NCBI GenBank assembly: GCA_964497435.1
Contig: CAZCCD010000003.1
Coordinates: 53,683 to 117,682 of the forward strand
DNA: 64,000 nt
Direction: 5' to 3'
Source: Candidatus Woesearchaeota archaeon
GTDB taxonomy: Archaea > Nanobdellota > Nanobdellia > Pacearchaeales > GW2011-AR1
In this document: in pieces, positions 2,748 to 63,452 of the stretch
Numbering within the stretch: the stretch's first letter is position 1
How the letters are laid out: each line of letters opens with the position of its first letter
Notes under the pieces: model-generated
Told to the model about the DNA's origin: nothing
The model's input: only the letters and a program-made list of their open reading frames with translations
The model's database searches: none
Translations under genes and position numbers: made by a program

Positions 2748-3227
2748 CTAAAAAACCTCAATTTCATAACTATTTTGTTTTTCATCGCAAGTATGTGTTC
2801 TTTCCCCTTTTTCAGATGTGCCAAGAAGGACAGGGGTCAATATAATACTTTCGGCAGAGCCAGTATATGAACTTATATCTTCAGAATAGCTTCCTCCTTG
2901 AGCAAGACCTTTGTCAGGCCATGTAGATATGTCTTCTAAATCCATAGACTCTCTGCTTCCTCCTCCAACTATTTTTATCTTCATTCCAAAAATAGGGATG
3001 TTTCCGTCGTTAACAATAGACAACTCTCCATTGTAGTAATCAGCCGTAAACTCTACTTTTTGGCATGTTAACTCAATATTTTCTCCTCCGAATTTTGTTA
3101 TTGTTTCTCCTCCTATTCTCCTAAACCATAAAAATATAATCAATGCAATTACAACAACCATTGCCACTAAAAGCACTGTAGCAATAACAGGAGAGACACC
3201 TTTTTTTTCACTCCTATTTTTTTTCAT
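2748..3227 (-). CDS. Archaeal type IV pilin-like protein (DUF361-like class III signal peptide)
   Basis: N-terminus ...SEKKG|VSPVIATVLLVAMVVVIALIIF, the canonical archaeal pilin pattern. Confidence 0.7.
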   Translation of the reverse strand: MKKNRSEKKGVSPVIATVLLVAMVVVIALIIFLWFRRIGGETITKFGGENIELTCQKVEFTADYYNGELSIVNDGNIPIFGMKIKIVGGGSRESMDLEDISTWPDKGLAQGGSYSEDISSYTGSAESIILTPVLLGTSEKGERTHTCDEKQNSYEIEVF

Positions 3228-13497: not shown

Positions 13498-13710
13498 ATG
13501 AGATTAAAAAAGATACCAAGGACAGATTTAGAGTATGTTGAATTTTATGCTAAAAAACTTAAAGAAAACCCTGAATTTTTCAAACAGCAGAAAGAGTTAA
13601 TAGAAAGCCAGCTAGAAAGCAGCTCTTCTTTGGCTAAAAAAAGGTTTCCAAAAGAAGACTTTAAAATTCAGGCAAGAATTTATCTAAAGAAAATAGGGCT
13701 TCTTTCTTAA
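13498..13710 (+). CDS. Hypothetical small protein
   Basis: 70-aa ORF, charged, plausible coding composition. Confidence 0.3.
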   Translation: MRLKKIPRTDLEYVEFYAKKLKENPEFFKQQKELIESQLESSSSLAKKRFPKEDFKIQARIYLKKIGLLS

Positions 13711-14507
13711 TAACTATACCATAAGACTAATTTTCCTTCATCGTCTCTTAAAAATAGGCTGTCTCCTGTTTCTGTCCAGATATATTCTTCTTCATTCCAG
13801 AATAAAACATTATCTTTATCTTCTTCATATCCAATCTCTATCCTAATTTCTTTATTTAATGTAAAATTAGAAAAAGTGAATATCTTTCTTCCTTCATCTT
13901 TTATTGTCCAGTTGTCTAAATTACAAGAAAATGAACAGCTGTTTTCCAAGATTACACTTTGGTCTTTTACATTTAATTGTTTTAATTCTATACAACTAGA
14001 ACATTCATCTTCTGATTTTTCACATAAATTCAAATTATTTTCAAGGCAGATATTCCAAGCAGCTTTAAAATCATTATAATATTTATCTTTACCTTGAGGG
14101 AAATAAAAGTTTGCAAAGCCATTTTCAACTAATTTAAGATTTACATTTTCTTCATCAACTATAACATATCTTAATTTTCTTTTGTATAAATCTAAATCCT
14201 GTCCAACCCTCTCCATCCTTACAAACCTATTAAGAATTAAATTTTCTAAAAATTTTTTAGATTCATCGTAATACAACTGGCCTTTTTCAGGAGTGTTGAT
14301 TCCAAGAAGCCTTACACTTGTTCCGTTAACTTTTATTGTATCTCCATCAATTACTCTCTCAACTATTCCAACTTCATAATCATTAAGCCAATTAGTCAGC
14401 AGTTTGTTAAGAAAAGGATAGTCTATTATAAAAAGAATTAATATTAACAATGATATTAAGAGTTTCAGCTTTATTTTTTCTTTTTCTTTTTTTTCCAGTT
14501 TAACCAT
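13707..14507 (-). CDS. Membrane-anchored thermonuclease (staphylococcal nuclease/SNase-like) with C-terminal beta-rich domain
   Basis: N-terminal TM; VIDGDTIKV...VRLLGINTPE matches the SNase catalytic core (DGDT...RLxGIDxPE). Confidence 0.75.
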   Translation of the reverse strand: MVKLEKKEKEKIKLKLLISLLILILFIIDYPFLNKLLTNWLNDYEVGIVERVIDGDTIKVNGTSVRLLGINTPEKGQLYYDESKKFLENLILNRFVRMERVGQDLDLYKRKLRYVIVDEENVNLKLVENGFANFYFPQGKDKYYNDFKAAWNICLENNLNLCEKSEDECSSCIELKQLNVKDQSVILENSCSFSCNLDNWTIKDEGRKIFTFSNFTLNKEIRIEIGYEEDKDNVLFWNEEEYIWTETGDSLFLRDDEGKLVLWYSY

Positions 14508-14762
14508 ATATAATGTGAGGAACCAAGGTTCCCCTTCACAACCCCTCCTTTAAAATAGTAAGAGTATTTTATATTAATTATGGTAGAGGAAAACATTGGT
14601 TTTATGAACTTCATTCCACCGCCACGATATTTAGTCTCACTTCGTTCGATATTGATAAATTGTTAATATATAAAAGCTTAATTATTCTTTGCTTAACTAT
14701 ACTTCTGCTTTACACAGAGAATGCGACTATTCTTGGCTTTATTCTGTAACCTTTTTAATAAG

Positions 14763-15527: not shown

Positions 15528-15633
15528 GCGAGGGTGTCGGAGCGGTCAAACGAGCAGCCCTTAAGTTAATAATCGATATTAGAAGAAAGGCTGTGGCTTA
15601 GTGCCTGCGCAGGTTCGAATCCTGTCCCTCGCA
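15528..15633 (+). tRNA. tRNA-Leu(UAA) with 22-nt intron at 37/38
   Basis: Acceptor GCGAGGG pairs perfectly with CCCTCGC; T-arm GCAGG-TTCGAAT-CCTGT; discriminator A73; anticodon stem CAGCC/GGCTG; loop CUUAAG, then intron 15566-15587 (ttaataatcgatattagaagaa), then A38; long variable arm. Confidence 0.75.
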
Positions 15634-29702: not shown

Positions 29703-30470
29703 TTAAATTAAACTATAATTTCCTTTTCCACTAAATTTTAACAATCCTTTGTCTCTTAATATTTGCAGTTGCTGTCTAATTTTTGCTTTAACATGGCTAT
29801 TCTTTGGATGAAGTTTTGACAATTCAACCTCATGTTTGTAAACATCTTGTAGATTAAATCGTCTCTTGTTTAATGAATGGATAGTATTTAGGATGTCACA
29901 TGTCCAACCCCTATCGTTTAAAGGTAATTTCCTCATAAAATTAATTTGCTTCCATTGCGACAATATTTTTTCTTTTTTAATTATATCTCCCTCTTCTATC
30001 ATGATTATCTTCCCTTCTGGTGGAATTTTGTTAATCAAAATGTTACATCCTACCCATCCAGCTCTTTTAGCGTTTTCTGAAAGAGGCTTCCTTTTCTCAA
30101 TAATTGATTCAGTAAAGAAGAAAAAAGGAATTAAATATAAATTTTTAACTAAATAATCTAAAGTGTACTGTAATAAAAAGAAGTTTGGTCTAAAATTATT
30201 TTTTATAGACTCAATCATTACTTTGTGAGCCCCATCATTTATTTTCTTTCCAAAATTATTTTTTTGGCTTTTTAATTGAAACTTTTCTTCACATCTTGGA
30301 CAGAAAAAATCATCGATAGGGTTGTTATTTGGAAAAGCTAAAATTTTCCTATTTGAACAATTTGGACAAAATATGTTTTTTCCCACCCACTTTTCTGTTA
30401 TAACCCTAACCCTCTGACTATTACTCTTGTACTTTTGAAACACTTCATTTTCAAAAATAGATAAATTCAT
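29703..30470 (-). CDS. DpnI-family methyl-directed (G-m6A-TC) type IIM restriction endonuclease
   Basis: YKSNSQRVRVITEKW, CPNCSN...FFCPRCEEKFQLKSQKNNF, INDGAH, RPNFFLLQYT, RKPLSENAKRAGWVGCNI, RGWTCDILNTI, and C-terminal wH KIRQQLQILRDKGLLKFSGKGNY. These closely parallel S. pneumoniae DpnI as recalled from memory. Confidence 0.7.
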   Translation of the reverse strand: MNLSIFENEVFQKYKSNSQRVRVITEKWVGKNIFCPNCSNRKILAFPNNNPIDDFFCPRCEEKFQLKSQKNNFGKKINDGAHKVMIESIKNNFRPNFFLLQYTLDYLVKNLYLIPFFFFTESIIEKRKPLSENAKRAGWVGCNILINKIPPEGKIIMIEEGDIIKKEKILSQWKQINFMRKLPLNDRGWTCDILNTIHSLNKRRFNLQDVYKHEVELSKLHPKNSHVKAKIRQQLQILRDKGLLKFSGKGNYSLI

Positions 30471-31226: not shown

Positions 31227-31739
31227 ATGTCTACAGAAAGTTTTATAAATAATGTAGACATATATAATCTTATGGTTTATACAGAGATTCAGGAAAGAAA
31301 TAATAAGAAGTATTTTTATAGAGTTATTTCTATCAGAAAAAGAAATAGAGTTTCAAAAAAAAGAAAATACTTAGGTGTTAACTTATCTGTAAAAGAATTA
31401 ACTAAAAAAGAAAAAAGAGCAGATGAGGAGTTTAGAGTAAAAAATGAGGATGCAAATAAAAGAGCCATAGAAAAAATAAAGCCAAGAATAATTAAAATTT
31501 TAAAGAAAAATAAGATAAAGAAGGCAGGCATATTCGGAAGTTTTGTAAAAGGAAAACTGAAAAAAAATAGTGATATTGATATTTTAATAGAACCAGCAAA
31601 GGGGATGGGTTTAGAATTTGTCGGGGTTAAATTAGAGTTAGAGGATGAACTTGGAAGAAAGGTTGATTTAGTCACTTACAAAGGGATCCATCCTTTAATT
31701 AAAAGAAAGATTTTAGAAGAAGAGATAAGAATATTATGA
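31227..31739 (+). CDS. Nucleotidyltransferase (MNT/MntA-like, Pol-beta superfamily) with basic N-terminal extension
   Basis: GIFGSFVKGKLKKNSDIDILIE reads as GxxGSxxxG...DxDxL. The 5' end lies in an 11-bp inverted repeat (atatgtctaca...tgtagacatat). Confidence 0.65.
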   Translation: MSTESFINNVDIYNLMVYTEIQERNNKKYFYRVISIRKRNRVSKKRKYLGVNLSVKELTKKEKRADEEFRVKNEDANKRAIEKIKPRIIKILKKNKIKKAGIFGSFVKGKLKKNSDIDILIEPAKGMGLEFVGVKLELEDELGRKVDLVTYKGIHPLIKRKILEEEIRIL

Positions 31740-32098
31740 AACGAGGATTAAGATTATTTATAGAAGATATATTAGAATCAATTAGATTAATAGAAAGATA
31801 CGTTAGGAATGTCTCTAAGGAGAATCTCGGCAATGACCAGAAATTAAAAGATTCTGTTGTAAGAAGATTAGAAATAATTGGAGAGGCAGTTAAAAATATT
31901 CCAGATAATTTTAGAGAAAAATATCCAAAAGTTCCTTGGAAAAAAATTGTGGGGTTAAGAGATATTATAATTCATACATATTTTAACATAGACTTCGATA
32001 TTACATGGAATATTATTAAAAAAGACCTTCCAGACCTAAAAGAAAAAATGTTGAAAATAAAAACTGAAGTAGAAGCCGAAGAAAAAAGAGGGCAGTAA
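31736..32098 (+). CDS. HEPN-domain protein (DUF86/HepT-like RNase toxin)
   Basis: RLEIIGEAVKNIP...YPKVPWKKIVGLRDIIIH Rx4-6H motif; ATGA overlap with the MNT gene. Confidence 0.7.
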   Translation: MKRGLRLFIEDILESIRLIERYVRNVSKENLGNDQKLKDSVVRRLEIIGEAVKNIPDNFREKYPKVPWKKIVGLRDIIIHTYFNIDFDITWNIIKKDLPDLKEKMLKIKTEVEAEEKRGQ

Positions 32099-36124: not shown

Positions 36125-36421
36125 ATGAAACAATATTCACTCAAAGATCTCGACAAAATATATAATCTTGAAATTGAAAGAGTAGTGAAAATAATAAATG
36201 AAGCAAAAGCTAAGCTTGTTCTCCTTCAATTTGCAGATGGTTTGAAGGCTTATGCTGTCTCTATTGTTGATGAATTAAGAGAAAAAACAAATGCCGAATT
36301 TGTAATCTGGATGGGCAGTTGTTTTGGAGCCTGCGATTTTCCTGTTGGTGTTGAGCATTTAAAGCCAGAGATAGATTTGATGATTCAGTTCGGTCACAAC
36401 GAGCTGATGCCGTCATATTAG
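36125..36421 (+). pseudogene. dph2: N-terminal fragment (98 aa) of diphthamide synthesis protein Dph2
   Basis: AKLVLLQFADGLKAYA...GSCFGACDFPVGVEHLKPEIDLMIQFGHNEL matches the Dph2 N-terminus (RVxIQxPEGL...YGACD...GHS), but the ORF stops after about 98 of an expected ~340 aa. No in-frame continuation is evident. Confidence 0.5.
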
Positions 36422-37722: not shown

Positions 37723-37877
37723 ATTTTACAGAATGAATTATTATTTTTAAATTTAAGTTATTTTTTGTCTCGCTTCGCTCAATTATTTTTTATTGTTAAT
37801 ACAAAAAATCTCTGTTTTATTACTATCTTGTTTTCTCTTTTTAGCATTAACTTATTTTAAGCGAGCTTCCAAATGTG

Positions 37878-37952
37878 GAAGAACCAAGGTTCTTCTAAAC
37901 TCGCAACCTTGTTCGTTGTGAGTTCAGCAATTTGTCTCACAAAATTGCTCGC
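37878..37952 (+). repeat. Structured repeat element copy A (perfect 7/8-bp hairpin plus two imperfect hairpins)
   Basis: GAAGAACCAAGGTTCTTC hairpin, then AAACTCGCAACC..CGTTGTGAGTT and AGCAATTTgtctcacAAAATTGCT. The 56-nt core is about 86% identical to 56447-56515. Confidence 0.6.
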
Positions 37953-38006
37953 ACTACCATTCCTTTTAAATGCAATAGGAAGCAAGCCGGATAACTATAT
38001 TTTATC

Positions 38007-49465: not shown

Positions 49466-49741
49466 ATGGAAATAGAAATAACAAAGATGACTTCCAAAGG
49501 CCAGGTAGTTATCCCTCAAGATATAAGGGAAAAGGCAGAGATAGAAGAAGGAGAAAAGTTTTTTGTTTACGTAAGCGGAGACTCTATAATTCTTAAAAGA
49601 ACTAAGGATTTTAAATCTGCAAAAAGCATGGAAGAATTTGAAAGAGTTTTTAAGAGTGCATGGAAAATAGCAAAATCTAAGGGGATAACAAAGGAAGACG
49701 TAGAGAAAGAGATAAAAGCTGTAAGAACTAATAAAGAATAA
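49466..49741 (+). CDS. AbrB/MazE/SpoVT-family antitoxin
   Basis: MTSKGQVVIPQDIREKAEIEEGEKF looped-hinge-helix motif; start likely the internal Met (MEIEITKM). Confidence 0.6.
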   Translation: MEIEITKMTSKGQVVIPQDIREKAEIEEGEKFFVYVSGDSIILKRTKDFKSAKSMEEFERVFKSAWKIAKSKGITKEDVEKEIKAVRTNKE

Positions 49742-50145
49742 TGTTAAAAGTTGTCCCAGATACAAATGTATTAGTTTCTGCTTTTATAGCTGAAGGAAAT
49801 GAATACAAGGTTTTAAAGTTAGCAAGATTAGGTAAAATTCAGTTAATTCTTTCTCCAGAAATCTTAGAAGAATTTAATGACGTAATAAGCAGGGAAAGAT
49901 TTGGTTTTTCCAAAGAACAAATATCTGATTTCAACACACAAATACTAACTACAACTTCTAATTTTGTTCAAATCAAGGAAAAACTGGATGTTGTAAAAGA
50001 TGATCCAGATGATAATAAAATTGTGGAGACTGCTGTTTCAGGAAAAGTAGATTATATCATTAGCGGGGATAATCATTTGTTAAAGCTAAAGAAGTTCAGG
50101 AAGATTAAGATAGTTAGTGCAGGAGAGTTTTTGAAGAGTGTTTAA
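49741..50145 (+). CDS. PIN-domain toxin (TIGR00305-like PIN family)
   Basis: VVPDTNVLVSAFI...SGDNHLL; TAATG stop/start overlap with the AbrB gene. Confidence 0.65.
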   Translation: MLKVVPDTNVLVSAFIAEGNEYKVLKLARLGKIQLILSPEILEEFNDVISRERFGFSKEQISDFNTQILTTTSNFVQIKEKLDVVKDDPDDNKIVETAVSGKVDYIISGDNHLLKLKKFRKIKIVSAGEFLKSV

Positions 50146-55858: not shown

Positions 55859-56278
55859 TTATCTGAATATAGCTTTAAAAGGATTTTTCCCTCTTCGTAG
55901 CATTCTTGCTCCTATTTTCCAACGCCTCCACTCCCTTTCTACATAATGTCTTACAGAATAAGATTTAAGCCTTTCTTTCAACTCGCTTAAATTATGTTTG
56001 TCTAGATATTCTCTTAACATTGTTCTTGCACACATAGCTGAACGATTATATTTATCTAGTAAAGATTCAGATATTCCTTCATTCTGAACTTCTTGATGAA
56101 GGTTTCTTTCTTGATTCAACATATTAGCTATATGGTAAACCCCAAATGCAGCAACACCTCCATAGATTGGAATTTTTATGAGGAGAGAGTGATCTGATTC
56201 AGCAATTGCGAGAGAGCCTGAGAGAGCGCATAAAGTCCCAAAAGGGTCTGTTTTAGCAATTCCTATTGTGCCCCCCAA
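55859..56278 (-). CDS. Hypothetical protein
   Basis: 139-aa ORF. Confidence 0.4.
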   Translation of the reverse strand: MGGTIGIAKTDPFGTLCALSGSLAIAESDHSLLIKIPIYGGVAAFGVYHIANMLNQERNLHQEVQNEGISESLLDKYNRSAMCARTMLREYLDKHNLSELKERLKSYSVRHYVEREWRRWKIGARMLRRGKNPFKAIFR

Positions 56279-56382
56279 TTAATTTGTCAAGCACCATAGA
56301 TTTTAGGAGATTTTTCAGTTTAAAAACTATTATGTGATTTGAACCAATAGTTTTTTAAACAAATTTTCTATTTTCATTATAT

Positions 56383-56629
56383 GCCCATATGGTCTAACGG
56401 CTATGACGCTAGCCTGTCGCATGGCGAGGACACCTAACGGTTTCCTTTAACTCGCAACCTCACTCGTTGTGAGTTTAGAAATTTGTCTCGTGAAATTGCT
56501 CGGCTTAACCTTCCCTAAAGGGTTCAACGCGGAATTCATAATGACACTTTTTTCGCTTGACTTCCCTTAAGAAATTATGGGGAGAAATGCAGAACGCTGG
56601 AAACCCGGGTCCGACTCCCGGTGTGGGCG
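56383..56629 (+). tRNA. tRNA-Asp(GUC) interrupted by a ~175-nt intron at 37/38 (exons about 56383-56419 and 56595-56629)
   Basis: Acceptor GCCCATA pairs with TGTGGGC (one G-U); G73; D-arm GUC(U)/(U)GAC with G10; anticodon stem CUAGC/GCUGG (C-G, U-G, A-U, G-C, C-G); loop C-U-GUC-G then intron then C38; T-arm CCGGG-TCCGACT-CCCGG. Asp identity elements G73, G34U35C36, C38 and G10 are all present. A 4-bp GCAU/AUGC helix bridges the two splice junctions (BHB-like). Confidence 0.6.
56447..56515 (+). repeat. Structured repeat element copy B, inside the tRNA-Asp intron
   Basis: TAACTCGCAACCtcactCGTTGTGAGTTtAGAAATTTgtctcgtgAAATTGCTCGG; about 86% identical to 37897-37952. Confidence 0.6.
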
Positions 56630-56664
56630 TAGAATTTATATAATAAGATTTCTAGGAAGGTAGA

Positions 56665-57840
56665 ATGGGGATATTTGATTTTTTTAGAAAAATAACTAAG
56701 ACAAACAATTTTGAAGAGATTGTTATAGAAAAGCTAACTTTTTTTGAGATTGAAAATTGGATTGAAAGGAGAATAAGAGAAAATGAACTTAAGGAGAAAG
56801 AGATTCTCTTTGTGGCCGGATGGAAGATTAAGGATTTTATTAAGGAACTTAGAGAGAAAATAGTAATTTTAAAGGGTGTTGATGTTGATGCAAGAAAGGA
56901 GAAAGATGAGATTAAAAACATTGTAATTGATAGTAGAAAAAAATATATAGAACTTGTGGAAGACTTAATTGAAAGATTAAATAACCTAGAAGAACCAAAA
57001 TTAGAGAGATTTATTGAGAGGATAAATAAGATTTTCTTTGATTTTAATAAAAGCTCATTTAAGAATTATGAAAGGGCTACAATTTTAATTGGAAAAGAAA
57101 TGGCAAGTATAAAATTCGGTGTAAGAGCTTTTTCTAAGGACCTATTAAAAACATACGAAAAAGGTAAAAGTGTTGTGGATTTTTTTAAAAGGATCTCTTT
57201 AGTTAAGTCGAAATTAGATATGATTCCTTCCATTGATAGAACCTTTGGAAAAATTAGTGAAACGATACTATCTCTTAATGGAAAGATAATGGATAAAGAA
57301 GAAGAAAATAAAAAAATCTTGGAAGAAATAGAAAAAATTAAGAAGAGTTCTAATTATTTGGGGTATTTGAGAAATCAAAAAAAGATCGAATCCCTAAAAG
57401 AAGAGTTAAAAAATGATATTTTTAGATTAAAACAACTTCTTGATTTTAAGGCCTTAGCTAATTTTTTCCACATAAACGAAGAACAAATGAATATCTTAAA
57501 AAATTATAAAGAAGATTTTTATACACACTTTATAGAAGACGATGGAAAATCAATTATAAGTTTGTTAGATGAAGCTAAATTAAACAATGAGAAAATATTA
57601 GATAAAATAGAAAAAATATATTCTAAATTAGAAGAAACAAAAAAACATGAACAAGAAATAAAAGAAGACGAAACCCAAGAATTATATCCTAAAATAAAAG
57701 AAATTGTATTAGAAATTGACAATCTAAAAATAGAAAAGGCTAAAGAAGAAAAAAGACATGAGAAACTAAAAACAAATAAGGAAGAGTTAATTAGTATATT
57801 AAAACAAGAGCTTGGTAAGATGAATGTGGAAGTAATTTGA
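56665..57840 (+). CDS. Coiled-coil (Lys/Glu-rich) hypothetical protein
   Basis: 391 aa of heptad-like K/E-rich sequence. Confidence 0.5.
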   Translation: MGIFDFFRKITKTNNFEEIVIEKLTFFEIENWIERRIRENELKEKEILFVAGWKIKDFIKELREKIVILKGVDVDARKEKDEIKNIVIDSRKKYIELVEDLIERLNNLEEPKLERFIERINKIFFDFNKSSFKNYERATILIGKEMASIKFGVRAFSKDLLKTYEKGKSVVDFFKRISLVKSKLDMIPSIDRTFGKISETILSLNGKIMDKEEENKKILEEIEKIKKSSNYLGYLRNQKKIESLKEELKNDIFRLKQLLDFKALANFFHINEEQMNILKNYKEDFYTHFIEDDGKSIISLLDEAKLNNEKILDKIEKIYSKLEETKKHEQEIKEDETQELYPKIKEIVLEIDNLKIEKAKEEKRHEKLKTNKEELISILKQELGKMNVEVI

Positions 57841-58854: not shown

Positions 58855-59193
58855 ATGAAACAGGTAATTTTAGACACGAGCTTTATCTTGACATGTTTGA
58901 AGCAGAAGATAGATTTCTTTGAAGAACTTGAACTTGAAGGATACCAAATAATAATTCCAAAACAAGTCTTAAATGAGTTAAAAGGATTAAAATCAAAACT
59001 TGCCTTAGATCTTTTAAGTTATCATAAATACAAGACCATAGATTTGGATTCTAAGAATGTTGATGATGGGATAATCAGGTATGCAGAAGAAAATCCAGAG
59101 GTGATTGTAGGGACTCTAGACAAAGGAATACAGGATGAAATTAAAAATAAGAAGATTATAATTAGGGGAATGAAGAAGCTAGAGGTTGTTTGA
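58855..59193 (+). CDS. PIN-domain protein
   Basis: QVILDTSFIL N-terminal acidic motif; about 110 aa. Confidence 0.5.
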   Translation: MKQVILDTSFILTCLKQKIDFFEELELEGYQIIIPKQVLNELKGLKSKLALDLLSYHKYKTIDLDSKNVDDGIIRYAEENPEVIVGTLDKGIQDEIKNKKIIIRGMKKLEVV

Positions 59194-61471: not shown

Positions 61472-62149
61472 TCATCTATTAATAACATGAAATCCAGATA
61501 TTATTTCCTTAAAAAAATCCTCAAGATTTGCTCTTTTACTTTCAGGCAATTTGTTCGTATTATCTAATACTTGAATGATATATCCTCTCTGATTTTTAAT
61601 TAACGTAGCTATTAAATGTTTTACTTCACTAGTTGTGCCTTTATAATTAACTGATGAAATTGTTTGATGAATCAATGCTGGGCAGTTGTCAATTACAATG
61701 TTCTCGTCATTTCCCCTATATTCTTTATTTTCAATAAATCTCCTTGGCACAATTCTGGCAATTGCCATTCCTATATAATATCCTTCTTTTGAAACATTAT
61801 GAAGAGTGTCCAAAGATGTGACACTATCGACCCACATCACACTTAAAATTGCTTTATCACTAAAAAATCTGTCAATTCCTTCACTGCTCGTGTTTTGAGT
61901 TTGTCCAGTGCTGTCTGGGTTAAGTGTGTCTACTTTAAACCCCTCATTTAACGGATTAACACTTAAGCCATACCTTCCAAGATTGCTAGTGTAAACTAAT
62001 TTTGTTACCTTTTCATTAACTTCATCTTCTATTAAAACATTTTCAAGTCTTGATGTATCTTTAGATAATGGATTTGCTGTTAAAGAAGAAAAACCGTTCA
62101 GGCTTGGCCAGGTTAAAGAAGCAACCATTAAATATGGTAAAATTTTCAT
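61472..62149 (-). CDS. Secreted hypothetical protein
   Basis: Signal peptide MKILPYLMVASLTWPSLNG. Confidence 0.5.
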   Translation of the reverse strand: MKILPYLMVASLTWPSLNGFSSLTANPLSKDTSRLENVLIEDEVNEKVTKLVYTSNLGRYGLSVNPLNEGFKVDTLNPDSTGQTQNTSSEGIDRFFSDKAILSVMWVDSVTSLDTLHNVSKEGYYIGMAIARIVPRRFIENKEYRGNDENIVIDNCPALIHQTISSVNYKGTTSEVKHLIATLIKNQRGYIIQVLDNTNKLPESKRANLEDFFKEIISGFHVINR

Positions 62150-62253
62150 TAAATGCTCTAATTTTTATTATTTTTAAATTTTTTGTATGCAGAAACTTTA
62201 AAAACCAACTTTTACTATTTTTTACAACTATCTAAAGATAAAATTAAAATAAA

Positions 62254-62871
62254 ATGTTCTATTTAAGTGAAGTTGAAGATTATGTAAGAGTCGCGCCAAA
62301 GCTTTTTGGTCTGCCTACTATGGAGGCTATTGAAGAACAACTTAAAGAAATTTATTCTAATTATTACGATGAAGAGCTTGGAAAAGTCATAACTGTCGTA
62401 GAAATCCTTAATGTTGGAGAAGGAGTCATGATACCCGGAGATGGCGCTGCATATTATAAATCAGCATTCAAACTCTTGACATGGAAGCCTGAATTACAAG
62501 AGCTTTTATTTGGTGAGATAGCAGAAATAACTAATTTTGGAGCTTTCATTAACATGGGAGTAATGAGGGGGATGATTCATATAGGTCAGACAATGGATGA
62601 TTATGTTTCATTTTCAAAATCAAATGTTCTAACTGGAAAGGCTTCAAAGAGATCATTGAAGGCAGGAGATTTATGCCTTGCTAGAATAGTTGCAATAAGC
62701 CATAAAGGTGAAGAGCCAAAAATTGGATTGACAATGAGACAGCCGGGTCTCGGTAAATTAGATTGGATTAAAGAAGATCAAATTAAGAGAGAAAAAGCAG
62801 AGAAACTTGCTTTGAAAGTAGAAGAGAAAACACCAAAAAAAAGCAAGAAGGAGAAGAAAGACAAAAAATGA
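62254..62871 (+). CDS. rpoE: DNA-directed RNA polymerase subunit E' (Rpo7/RpoE)
   Basis: N-terminal RNP-like domain plus S1 domain (GDGAAYYKSAFKLLTWKPELQELLFGEIAEITNFGAFINMGVMRGMIHIGQ...IGLTMRQPGLG). Confidence 0.85.
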   Translation: MFYLSEVEDYVRVAPKLFGLPTMEAIEEQLKEIYSNYYDEELGKVITVVEILNVGEGVMIPGDGAAYYKSAFKLLTWKPELQELLFGEIAEITNFGAFINMGVMRGMIHIGQTMDDYVSFSKSNVLTGKASKRSLKAGDLCLARIVAISHKGEEPKIGLTMRQPGLGKLDWIKEDQIKREKAEKLALKVEEKTPKKSKKEKKDKK

Positions 62872-62920
62872 AACAAAAAATAAATTATAAATTTCCATTT
62901 TATTTCCTTTGGAGGATCAA

Positions 62921-63109
62921 ATGAAACAAAAAGCATGCAAGATTTGTAACGCAATTTATGAGACAGGAGATAAATGCCCAAAATGCGGGGCTAGAGAATT
63001 CACAGATAATTTCAAAGGAAGAATTGTTGTTGTAAATCCTGAAAAATCAGAAATGGCTAAAAAATTAAAAATTAAAGGTAAGGGAAATTATGCAATTAAA
63101 ACTAGATAA
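62921..63109 (+). CDS. spt4: Transcription elongation factor Spt4 (RpoE'')
   Basis: KACKICNAIYETGDKCPKCGAREFTDNFKGRIVVVNPEKSEMAKKLKI; zinc ribbon plus NGN-binding region. Confidence 0.8.
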   Translation: MKQKACKICNAIYETGDKCPKCGAREFTDNFKGRIVVVNPEKSEMAKKLKIKGKGNYAIKTR

Positions 63110-63110
63110 C

Positions 63111-63452
63111 ATGGAATTACATAAAGTTTCTAAAGAATTTGAGAACAAATTATTTAAGAGGAAAGAAATAGAATTTGTTATAGTTTCTAATTCTGTTCCA
63201 AGCAGAAAAGATGTTGAAGAAATTATTTCAAAAAAATATTCAACTAACCCTGAAAATATAAAAATAAAGAAGATTCACGGGAAATTTGGAACCAAAGAAT
63301 TTAATATTATTGCTAATGTTTATGATTCTGAAAAGGAAAGAGATTCTACAGAGTTTCACAAGAAGAAAGATGTAGAAAGAAGGAAGAAACCTGAAACTCC
63401 CAAAGAAAATCCTAAAGAAGAAAATAAACCCGAAGAACAAAAATCTGAATAA
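63111..63452 (+). CDS. rps24e: 30S ribosomal protein S24e
   Basis: FKRKEIEFVIVSNSVPSRKDVEEIISKKYS...IKKIHGKFGTKEFNIIANVYDS. Confidence 0.8.
   Translation: MELHKVSKEFENKLFKRKEIEFVIVSNSVPSRKDVEEIISKKYSTNPENIKIKKIHGKFGTKEFNIIANVYDSEKERDSTEFHKKKDVERRKKPETPKENPKEENKPEEQKSE

Follow-up and report, generated by a model that had tools for sequence, protein, structure and literature searches.

A predicted intron-bearing aspartate tRNA gene

The stretch of DNA analysed here (64,000 nt of contig CAZCCD010000003.1, referred to below as the window) contains a plus-strand locus whose two ends, 56383–56419 (37 nt) and 56595–56629 (35 nt), join into a 72-nt cloverleaf, tRNA-Asp(GUC). The 5′ exon sequence GCCCATATGGTCTAACGGCTATGACGCTAGCCTGTCG is followed by a 175-nt insert and then by the 3′ exon sequence CGCTGGAAACCCGGGTCCGACTCCCGGTGTGGGCG. 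On the comparative evidence set out below, we consider this locus very probably a real and functional aspartate tRNA gene with a single intron that would be spliced out by protein enzymes. The window encodes archaeal proteins (aIF5B, an RpoE/Rpb7-like subunit, ribosomal protein S24e, a TrmB regulator and an archaeal pilin) as well as several aminoacyl-tRNA synthetases, at a GC content of ~31%. This gene content, together with relatives among the metagenome-assembled genomes (MAGs) of Pacearchaeota, identifies the host as an uncultivated DPANN archaeon close to Pacearchaeota. Look-ups by exact protein sequence locate the window in Logan assemblies of the runs SRR12113383/4. The gene is built as follows:

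56351–56359, plus strand: archaeal TATA-like box TTTTTTAAA, starting 32 nt upstream of tRNA position 1, read from the sequence
56383–56419, plus strand: tRNA-Asp 5′ exon, positions 1–37, with acceptor strand GCCCATA, D arm, anticodon stem CTAGC and loop CTGTCG (ARAGORN -i and identity to homologues)
56416–56418, plus strand: anticodon GTC, within the 5′ exon loop CTGTCG
56420–56594, plus strand: intron, 175 nt, at the canonical 37/38 position (ARAGORN -i)
56595–56629, plus strand: tRNA-Asp 3′ exon, positions 38–73, with C38, GCTGG, variable loop AAAC, T arm CCGGG-TCCGACT-CCCGG, acceptor strand TGTGGGC and discriminator G73

The cloverleaf has a 7-bp acceptor stem that includes one T-G pair, a D arm with G10, the anticodon stem CTAGC/GCTGG with C38, a variable loop of 4 nt, a 5-bp T stem and G73, and CCA is absent from the encoded 3′ exon. 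Removal of the insert completes the structure, and ARAGORN calls the spliced sequence tRNA-Asp(gtc). A first-pass annotation of the locus had assigned both halves with exactly these coordinates; the aspartate identity elements it listed (G73, GUC, C38 and G10) are all present in the joined sequence, and its anticodon stem, CUAGC/GCUGG, is the one formed when the halves are joined.

A metagenome scan with a pattern composed of the D arm and CTGTC returned 120 loci (designated by L-numbers, e.g. L071 or L123), ~113 of which contain a full tRNA-Asp(GUC) gene of this type. The spliced window tRNA is identical to the intronless L123 at 69 of 72 positions, and to more than 12 other tRNA-Asp genes at 66–68 of 72 (L121 and L031 at 68), and the exons are free of damaging substitutions. 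In the T loop TCCGACT (56612–56618), position 55 is C and not the near-universal U of the pseudouridine 55 site; the same C55 is present in 19 of 113 related tRNA-Asp genes. Related loci also carry TTTAAAAAT 34–40 nt upstream of +1, and the TATA-like box of the window gene is a putative promoter element which, lying only 32 nt before tRNA position 1, would imply a very short 5′ leader.

Default ARAGORN reports no tRNA in the whole 64-kb window, and Rfam at the gathering threshold gives no match at the tRNA-Asp locus; at E ≤ 10 on 56250–56750, Rfam again returns no tRNA, Intron_gpI or snoRNA family. ARAGORN in intron mode (-i) on the genomic sequence recovers tRNA-Asp(gtc) with an intron of 175 nt, so the expectation that standard finders would miss the gene was borne out. 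Other Rfam matches at the locus were discarded: a CRISPR-DR63-like match at 56312–56343 (22.7 bits vs. a gathering threshold of 37) lies in the AT-rich promoter region and is attributed to chance, as are RAGATH-17 and COG2908 (E ≤ 10), which are noise.

The gene is also, as previously claimed, the only tRNA-Asp in the window: the sole other real tRNA in the ARAGORN scan of the window is a tRNA-Leu(UAA) at 15528–15633 on the plus strand, with an intron of 22 nt. It scores 44.3 bits with the Rfam tRNA model in a local search and was missed by the whole-window Rfam search at the gathering threshold and by default ARAGORN. As both genes bear introns, every real tRNA gene in the window has one. A further ARAGORN call, tRNA-Leu(aag) at 62055–63215, is a false positive whose 1072-nt "intron" covers the RpoE-like open-reading frame (ORF) at 62254–62871. 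Similarly, among the scanned loci, apparent introns of >1.5 kb at L012 and L113 are in fact intronless genes with an anticodon-stem mismatch.

Splice junctions and a competing helix

The ends of the insert fall within a complete bulge-helix-bulge (BHB), which in archaea consists of a 4-bp helix between two 3-nt bulges, the helix including the first two anticodon bases (PMC4090602). The window register agrees with this definition, as its central helix (H) includes the first two anticodon bases, and the anticodon stem acts as helix h:

56414–56417, plus strand: 5′ strand of central helix H, C32 U33 G34 U35, pairing with 56589–56592 (paired in 99% of cells, 28 homologues)
56418–56420, plus strand: 5′ bulge, C36 G37 / C(i1), with the predicted 5′ splice site between 56419 and 56420
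56421–56422, plus strand: 5′ strand AU of outer helix h′, pairing with 56587–56588, 2 bp in the window gene
56587–56592, plus strand: 3′ strand AU of h′ (56587–56588) and 3′ strand GCAG of H (56589–56592)
56593–56595, plus strand: 3′ bulge, A A / C38, with the predicted 3′ splice site between 56594 and 56595

The last base of exon 1 is G37 (56419) and the first of exon 2 is C38 (56595), with both splice sites placed after the second bulge base. ARAGORN can also shift the intron rightwards by one base, an ambiguity that stems solely from a C at both the first intron position and position 38; homologues with an intron starting in T or A fix the register at 37/38. An intron at the identical position occurs in 27 other related tRNA-Asp genes, with lengths of 23, 28, 29, 29, 34, 41, 41, 41 and 42 nt in the shorter group and of 62, 65, 65, 67, 69, 69, 70, 71, 71, 72, 75, 77, 78, 84, 115, 123, 128 and 133 nt in the longer one. 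All 28 intron-bearing genes have H as CUGU:(A/G)CAG, bulges of CG/N and AA/C (the slash marking the splice site) and an h′ of 1–9 bp. In the junction-region alignment the BHB register pairs in 97.5% of cells, against 22–40% for registers slid by 1–3 columns, and compensatory changes are seen at 3 of 3 h′ pairs tested and 4 of 5 anticodon-stem pairs. By our own estimate, the chance of a 4+2-bp helix arising in the BHB register is ~0.003.

The gene would be transcribed from the TATA box ~30 nt upstream into a pre-tRNA of ~250 nt, in which bases 32–35 of the anticodon loop would pair with GCAG near the intron end to give the 4-bp helix with a 3-nt bulge on each side. The archaeal splicing endonuclease (EndA) would cut after G37 and before C38, an RtcB-type ligase would join the exons into the 72-nt tRNA, to which CCA would be added later, and the ligase would probably also circularise the 175-nt intron. 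Transcription, cleavage, ligation and circularisation at this locus are all steps that we infer from the DNA sequence.

The first-pass annotation had described a GCAU/AUGC helix across the junctions as BHB-like. This pairing exists (56419–56422 with 56587–56590), is the local minimum-energy pairing and partly covaries, but the role of central helix in the BHB belongs to CUGU/GCAG. Besides the two h′ pairs, GCAU/AUGC comprises G37:C and C(i1):G, the latter two excluding half of the BHB central helix. The fold constrained to cloverleaf and BHB has an energy of −74.3 kcal/mol vs. −81.4 kcal/mol unconstrained. The 28-gene alignment shows covariation between the first base of the intron and the base 5 positions before its final one (CG in 17, UA in 6, AU in 1, unpaired in 3); in the window these are 56420, a bulge base in the BHB, and 56589, which pairs with U35 in the BHB. 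Covariation of a bulge base is unexpected, and suggests that a second conformation is under selection, possibly a competing conformer of the precursor. Alternatively, the same covariation could reflect a helix spanning the site at which a circular intron is ligated, in a stem closed by a CAGAA loop.

Composition of the intron

No ORF longer than 33 aa is present in the intron, which is composed of hairpins and repeats:

56427–56446, plus strand: hairpin P1, AGGACACC-TAAC-GGTTTCCT, a near base-for-base match to the 75-nt intron of L071
56449–56514, plus strand: repeat copy B, the two-hairpin element, with HP1 at 56449–56475 (10-bp stem, 7-nt loop) and HP2 at 56478–56499
56515–56556, plus strand: extra segment, comprising a partial P2-like unit (…TTCCCTAAAGGG) and 34 nt without counterpart in related introns
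56557–56584, plus strand: linker TTGAC and hairpin P2 (TTCCC…GGGGAG), fitting the family consensus TTGACAnTCAACC-TTCCTTTAA…GGAGG

Among the relatives' introns of 62–133 nt, 15 of 18 are homologous by their P1 sequences when tabulated, and share the order h′, hairpin P1, linker (TGACAnTCAACC), a pyrimidine/purine hairpin P2 (CCTTCC…GGAGG) and a short A-rich tail. The P1 consensus is AAGGRAACC-AA-GGTTYCCTT and its stems covary across introns, for example GGAACC/GGTTCC, AGAACC/GGTTCT, AGGACC/GGTCCT and TTAAAATC/GATTTTAA. The window and L071 introns have GCGA(A)GGACACCTAACGGTTTCCT and the P2 region in common, but ~100 nt between P1 and the final linker/P2 of the window intron are missing from L071, the two-hairpin element among them. 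Repeat copy B ends on its 3′ side in GCTCGG and a linker-like CTTAACC, and the partial linker/P2 unit within 56515–56556 probably arose by duplication. The best-supported account is that the window intron descends from a lineage-typical tRNA-Asp intron of 60–80 nt, enlarged by ~100 nt of inserted or duplicated sequence; any order of the insertion events within it would be read from the present arrangement. Such repeats could be tolerated because BHB splicing removes whatever lies between the bulges.

The intron had been described as far longer than an archaeal norm of 12–25 nt. These figures are the medians of a 2014 review, which gives a range of 11–129 nt for archaeal tRNA introns (PMC4090602), and 175 nt does stand far above them; introns of 62–133 nt are, however, common in the tRNA-Asp genes of this lineage (19 of 28 intron-bearing genes). 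Given the long introns in both tRNA-Asp and tRNA-Tyr genes of the lineage, 175 nt falls at the far end of a lineage-specific distribution and is no isolated oddity. The tRNA-Tyr(GUA) genes, at L009, L011, L031, L039, L040, L048, L057, L059 and L085 (the last labelled tRNA-Asn(GTT) by ARAGORN), have introns of 51–103 nt with a conserved sequence of their own (…CTAAGGTGGAGATTCC…GGAA…ATGAAACCCCAAAAGCC…), and constitute, in these DPANN contigs, a second family of long introns specific to an isoacceptor.

Dispersed copies of the intron sequences

Parts of the intron recur elsewhere, both as the two-hairpin element and as the P1-linker-P2 module, and two further sites lie in the window itself:

37861–37984, plus strand: copy A, a free-standing intergenic paralogue, with GCGAGC, a P1-like hairpin (37877–37896), the two-hairpin element (37898–37963), linker CACTACC and a P2-like hairpin (37959–37982)
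14515–14564, plus strand: third copy of the module (P1-linker-P2), lacking the two-hairpin element (27.4 bits and E = 0.001 with a covariance model; E = 2e-5 to 2e-7 with nhmmer)

The earlier claim that the intron carries a repeat was confirmed: 56449–56514 and 37898–37963 share 80% identity over 66 nt (blastn E ~1e-11 within the window). Five more copies of the element, all intergenic, were found in two Candidatus Pacearchaeota groundwater MAGs, the sole relatives in the genome collection that were reached through the intron's repeat, and diverged relatives of the element retain just the ends ACTCGCAAC… and …AAATTGCTCGCC. Copy A is flanked by two minus-strand genes and folds well below shuffled controls (z = −5.1). 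Its P1-like hairpin is GGAAGAACC-AA-GGTTCTTC and, as it also has the linker and P2-like 3′ part, it resembles the entire composite in free-standing form. An Rfam search of copy A gave no match, and no BHB was seen by eye in its flanks. The third module copy reads GAGGAACC-AA-GGTTCC-CCTTCACAACCCCTCCTTTAAA and begins ~10 nt from the ATG of a minus-strand nuclease-like ORF (13707–14507), in its promoter/leader region. The covariance model of the module was built from 3 seed sequences, which is too narrow, and recovered fewer copies than nhmmer.

The module also occurs beside tRNA genes. In the 5′ flanks of six related tRNA-Asp genes (L030, L097, L062, L058, L111 and L009, five of them intronless and one with a 28-nt intron) it measures ~40 nt and lies ~3–8 bases upstream of position 1 on the opposite strand, and L058 has four tandem modules. 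The idea that every tRNA-Asp gene needs a module either in its intron or upstream was ruled out, as 72 of the 77 intronless tRNA-Asp genes with enough flank have none. Module-bearing inserts of ~115 nt (L004, ~2960–3110, minus strand) and ~77 nt (L072, ~2540–2640) adjoin a tRNA-Ile and a tRNA-Ser gene, respectively, between 21-nt and 17-nt direct repeats of the tRNA 3′ end. Such direct repeats are a signature of site-specific integration into tRNA genes, and would here mark an integration or its remnant.

Alignments of 7 copies, whose ends are conserved but whose boundaries are fuzzy, revealed neither recognisable terminal inverted repeats nor target-site duplications, and no transposase is linked to the repeat or module copies. 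Scans of viral contigs for the element and the module returned nothing, or one coincidental match in a GC-rich coding region. The distribution of the two-hairpin repeat and of the P1-linker-P2 module has the character of insertion-prone units in these genomes, as judged from where the copies lie.

Gain and loss between syntenic loci

Presence of the intron differs between closely related loci. L033 is intronless whilst L080/L116, with 91% identical flanks, have a 41-nt intron; L021 and L084 (70-nt intron), and likewise L060 and L104 (115-nt intron), are syntenic and differ in intron presence; and L121 and L125 have identical mature tRNAs, without and with a 77-nt intron. The window locus itself has an intronless syntenic counterpart in L095, with a downstream gene 71% identical over 390 nt. 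L095 also forms an empty/filled-site pair for the module with L030: their upstream DNA is 83% identical and the TATA box is common to both, and L030 has ~41–45 nt of module sequence between promoter and tRNA. Syntenic loci that differ just by an intron or a module indicate recent gain or loss, over short evolutionary timescales.

Other genes of the window

A 98-aa ORF (36125–36421, plus strand) matches just the first 60 of 302 positions of a diphthamide-synthesis profile, and could represent a gene that is truncated or split. A DpnI-like methyl-directed restriction enzyme gene (29703–30470, minus strand) is adjacent to a nucleotidyltransferase/HepT-like toxin-antitoxin pair (31227–32098, plus strand), and PIN-domain genes lie at 49741–50145 and 58855–59193.

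Alternative explanations

Several observations weigh against a functional, protein-spliced gene and its history of enlargement. Splicing of the window gene is itself something that we infer, and its h′ is just 2 bp. The nearest-neighbour model favours the GCAU/AUGC conformer by ~3.7–3.9 kcal/mol, as it does in almost every homologue. Pfam identifies no EndA or RtcB gene among the ORFs of the 64-kb window. Our search covered that window, and a second, intronless tRNA-Asp may lie elsewhere in the genome. Look-ups through the neighbouring proteins did not confirm the locus in independent assemblies, as the contig breaks off 2 nt short of the downstream gene and no record exists for the upstream ORF. 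Finally, the syntenic differences are unpolarised by phylogeny, and what appears as insertion may be deletion in the relatives.

Compatible with a protein-spliced gene, though in our view rather unlikely, is that the intron, or the module with the two-hairpin element, encodes a functional small RNA released by splicing and probably circular, in which case copy A and the copy at 14.5 kb would be stand-alone genes for the same RNA, in parallel to the box C/D RNA of the haloarchaeal tRNA-Trp intron. Conservation of module sequence and P1 pairing across many tRNA-Asp introns speaks for it, as do the strong folding of the free-standing copies (z = −5.1 for copy A) and the covariation of the first intron base, a pairing that would close a helix spanning the circular intron's ligation junction. 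However, the module is lacking from the great majority of the related intronless genes (72 of 77), no target complementarity was found, and neither C/D nor H/ACA boxes are present: the intron sequence is without CTGA and TGATGA and has no Rfam snoRNA match. A box C/D guide RNA of the tRNA-Trp type was accordingly rejected, both the C box (RUGAUGA) and the D box (CUGA) being missing. The upstream modules are moreover opposite in orientation to the tRNA, which a DNA-level repeat fits better than a sense RNA.

The locus might instead be a pseudogene, in which a mobile repeat inserted into the anticodon loop abolished processing and the gene was replaced by another tRNA-Asp copy in the genome. The dispersed repeats inside the intron and the minimal h′ are what such an event could leave, and our analysis covers a part of the genome. 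We consider this improbable, as the exons are undamaged and match an intact gene at 69 of 72 positions, the insertion is exactly at 37/38 with a complete BHB common to 27 homologues, and a promoter-like TATA lies at the distance typical of the family; one copy per tRNA gene is also typical of archaea (PMC4307357).

The chance that the insert is a self-splicing group I intron, like those of Patescibacteria tRNA-Asp and tRNA-Asn genes, is in our estimation close to nil: group I introns are known in DPANN rRNA genes, including those of Pacearchaeota (PMC6125680), and in bacterial tRNA-Asp genes (PMC13011429), but no Intron_gpI match was obtained at E ≤ 10 on 56250–56750, the 5′ exon ends (−1) in G, not U, the intron ends in A, not G, it is just 175 nt long with a complete covarying BHB, and all 39 of 39 reported archaeal group I introns lie in rRNA (PMC6125680). 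Equally negligible is the possibility that tRNA-like halves came together by chance or that the assembly is chimeric, for although the sequence is metagenome-derived and no independent contig spanning the locus was retrieved, both halves match >100 homologous genes base for base, the junctions are at exact BHB positions (chance of the helix ~0.003) and 27 other contigs have the same architecture. A split, trans-spliced tRNA of the Nanoarchaeum type was rejected, since the halves lie on one strand 175 nt apart behind a single upstream TATA box.

Relation to known tRNA introns and repeats

The protein-spliced tRNA-Asp intron of the window is, in its mechanism and position, an ordinary, textbook canonical archaeal tRNA intron; it stands apart in its extreme length and in its content. 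Like the canonical BHB introns of Haloferax volcanii it lies at position 37/38, one base 3′ of the anticodon, within a 3-nt bulge, 4-bp helix and 3-nt bulge, and the same EndA and ligase mechanism, with a circular intron by-product, would be expected (PMC4090602, PMC7714728). The H. volcanii introns measure 103 nt in tRNA-Trp, 75 nt in tRNA-Met and 31 nt in tRNA-Gln (PMC7714728), and the window intron, at 175 nt, exceeds the 11–129 nt of the 2014 review, to which longer newer examples may have been added. Unlike the tRNA-Trp intron it has no C/D boxes, carrying a lineage-specific hairpin module and a dispersed repeat instead.

In the Thermoproteales, "intron transposition" has been described, with similar introns at different tRNA loci and a presumed gain at the DNA level (Fujishima et al. 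2010, as summarised in PMC4090602). On that summary, our loci are similar in that an intron-like sequence recurs at different places, and here syntenic loci differ by intron presence. They differ in that the window-type sequence occupies introns of one tRNA species, together with 5′ flanks (in opposite orientation), intergenic sites and sites beside duplicated tRNA 3′ ends, and in that the lineage is DPANN. With the group I introns of Patescibacteria tRNA-Asp and tRNA-Asn genes (PMC13011429), the window gene shares an essential tRNA hidden from standard annotation in an ultrasmall-cell lineage; those introns are ribozymes, whereas a protein endonuclease would act here and the window intron has no group I core. 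The repeats resemble miniature inverted-repeat transposable elements (MITEs) and repetitive extragenic palindromic (REP)-like elements in that they are ~40–70 nt long, form hairpins, occur in multiple intergenic copies and vary in presence among close relatives; on the other side, neither terminal inverted repeats nor target-site duplications were recognised, the boundaries are not sharp, and no transposase is linked to them. Our literature search found no published description of these tRNA-Asp or tRNA-Tyr intron families or of the repeats.

Implications

The finding extends the length range of archaeal tRNA introns from the 129 nt of the 2014 review to 175 nt, and reveals that default ARAGORN and the Rfam tRNA model are blind to an essential tRNA gene. 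As the default finders miss it, genomes of this lineage would be scored as without tRNA-Asp; DPANN tRNA sets have been found incomplete, and manual curation requested (PMC5829648).

It is also possible, although we would lean against it, that the module and the two-hairpin element are small mobile sequences which prefer sites in or beside DPANN tRNA genes, the copy in the intron being one that survives. The sites observed are the anticodon loop, the 5′ flank ~3–8 bases upstream of position 1 and positions beside duplicated tRNA 3′ ends. Once inserted into the anticodon loop, such a copy would persist as a "new intron", since its two ends can form a BHB. In a variant of this proposal the excised circular intron may itself be the mobile or functional form, at which the first-base covariation across the ligation junction hints.

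The window intron, its 27 homologous introns and the intron-plus/minus syntenic pairs together form a compact data set on the gain, loss and enlargement of archaeal tRNA introns, and of greatest interest in it are the repeats associated with tRNA genes, which may be agents of such gain. If these are indeed mobile sequences, the 175-nt intron would record nested insertions, and such loci would offer a direct handle on how archaeal tRNA introns are gained.

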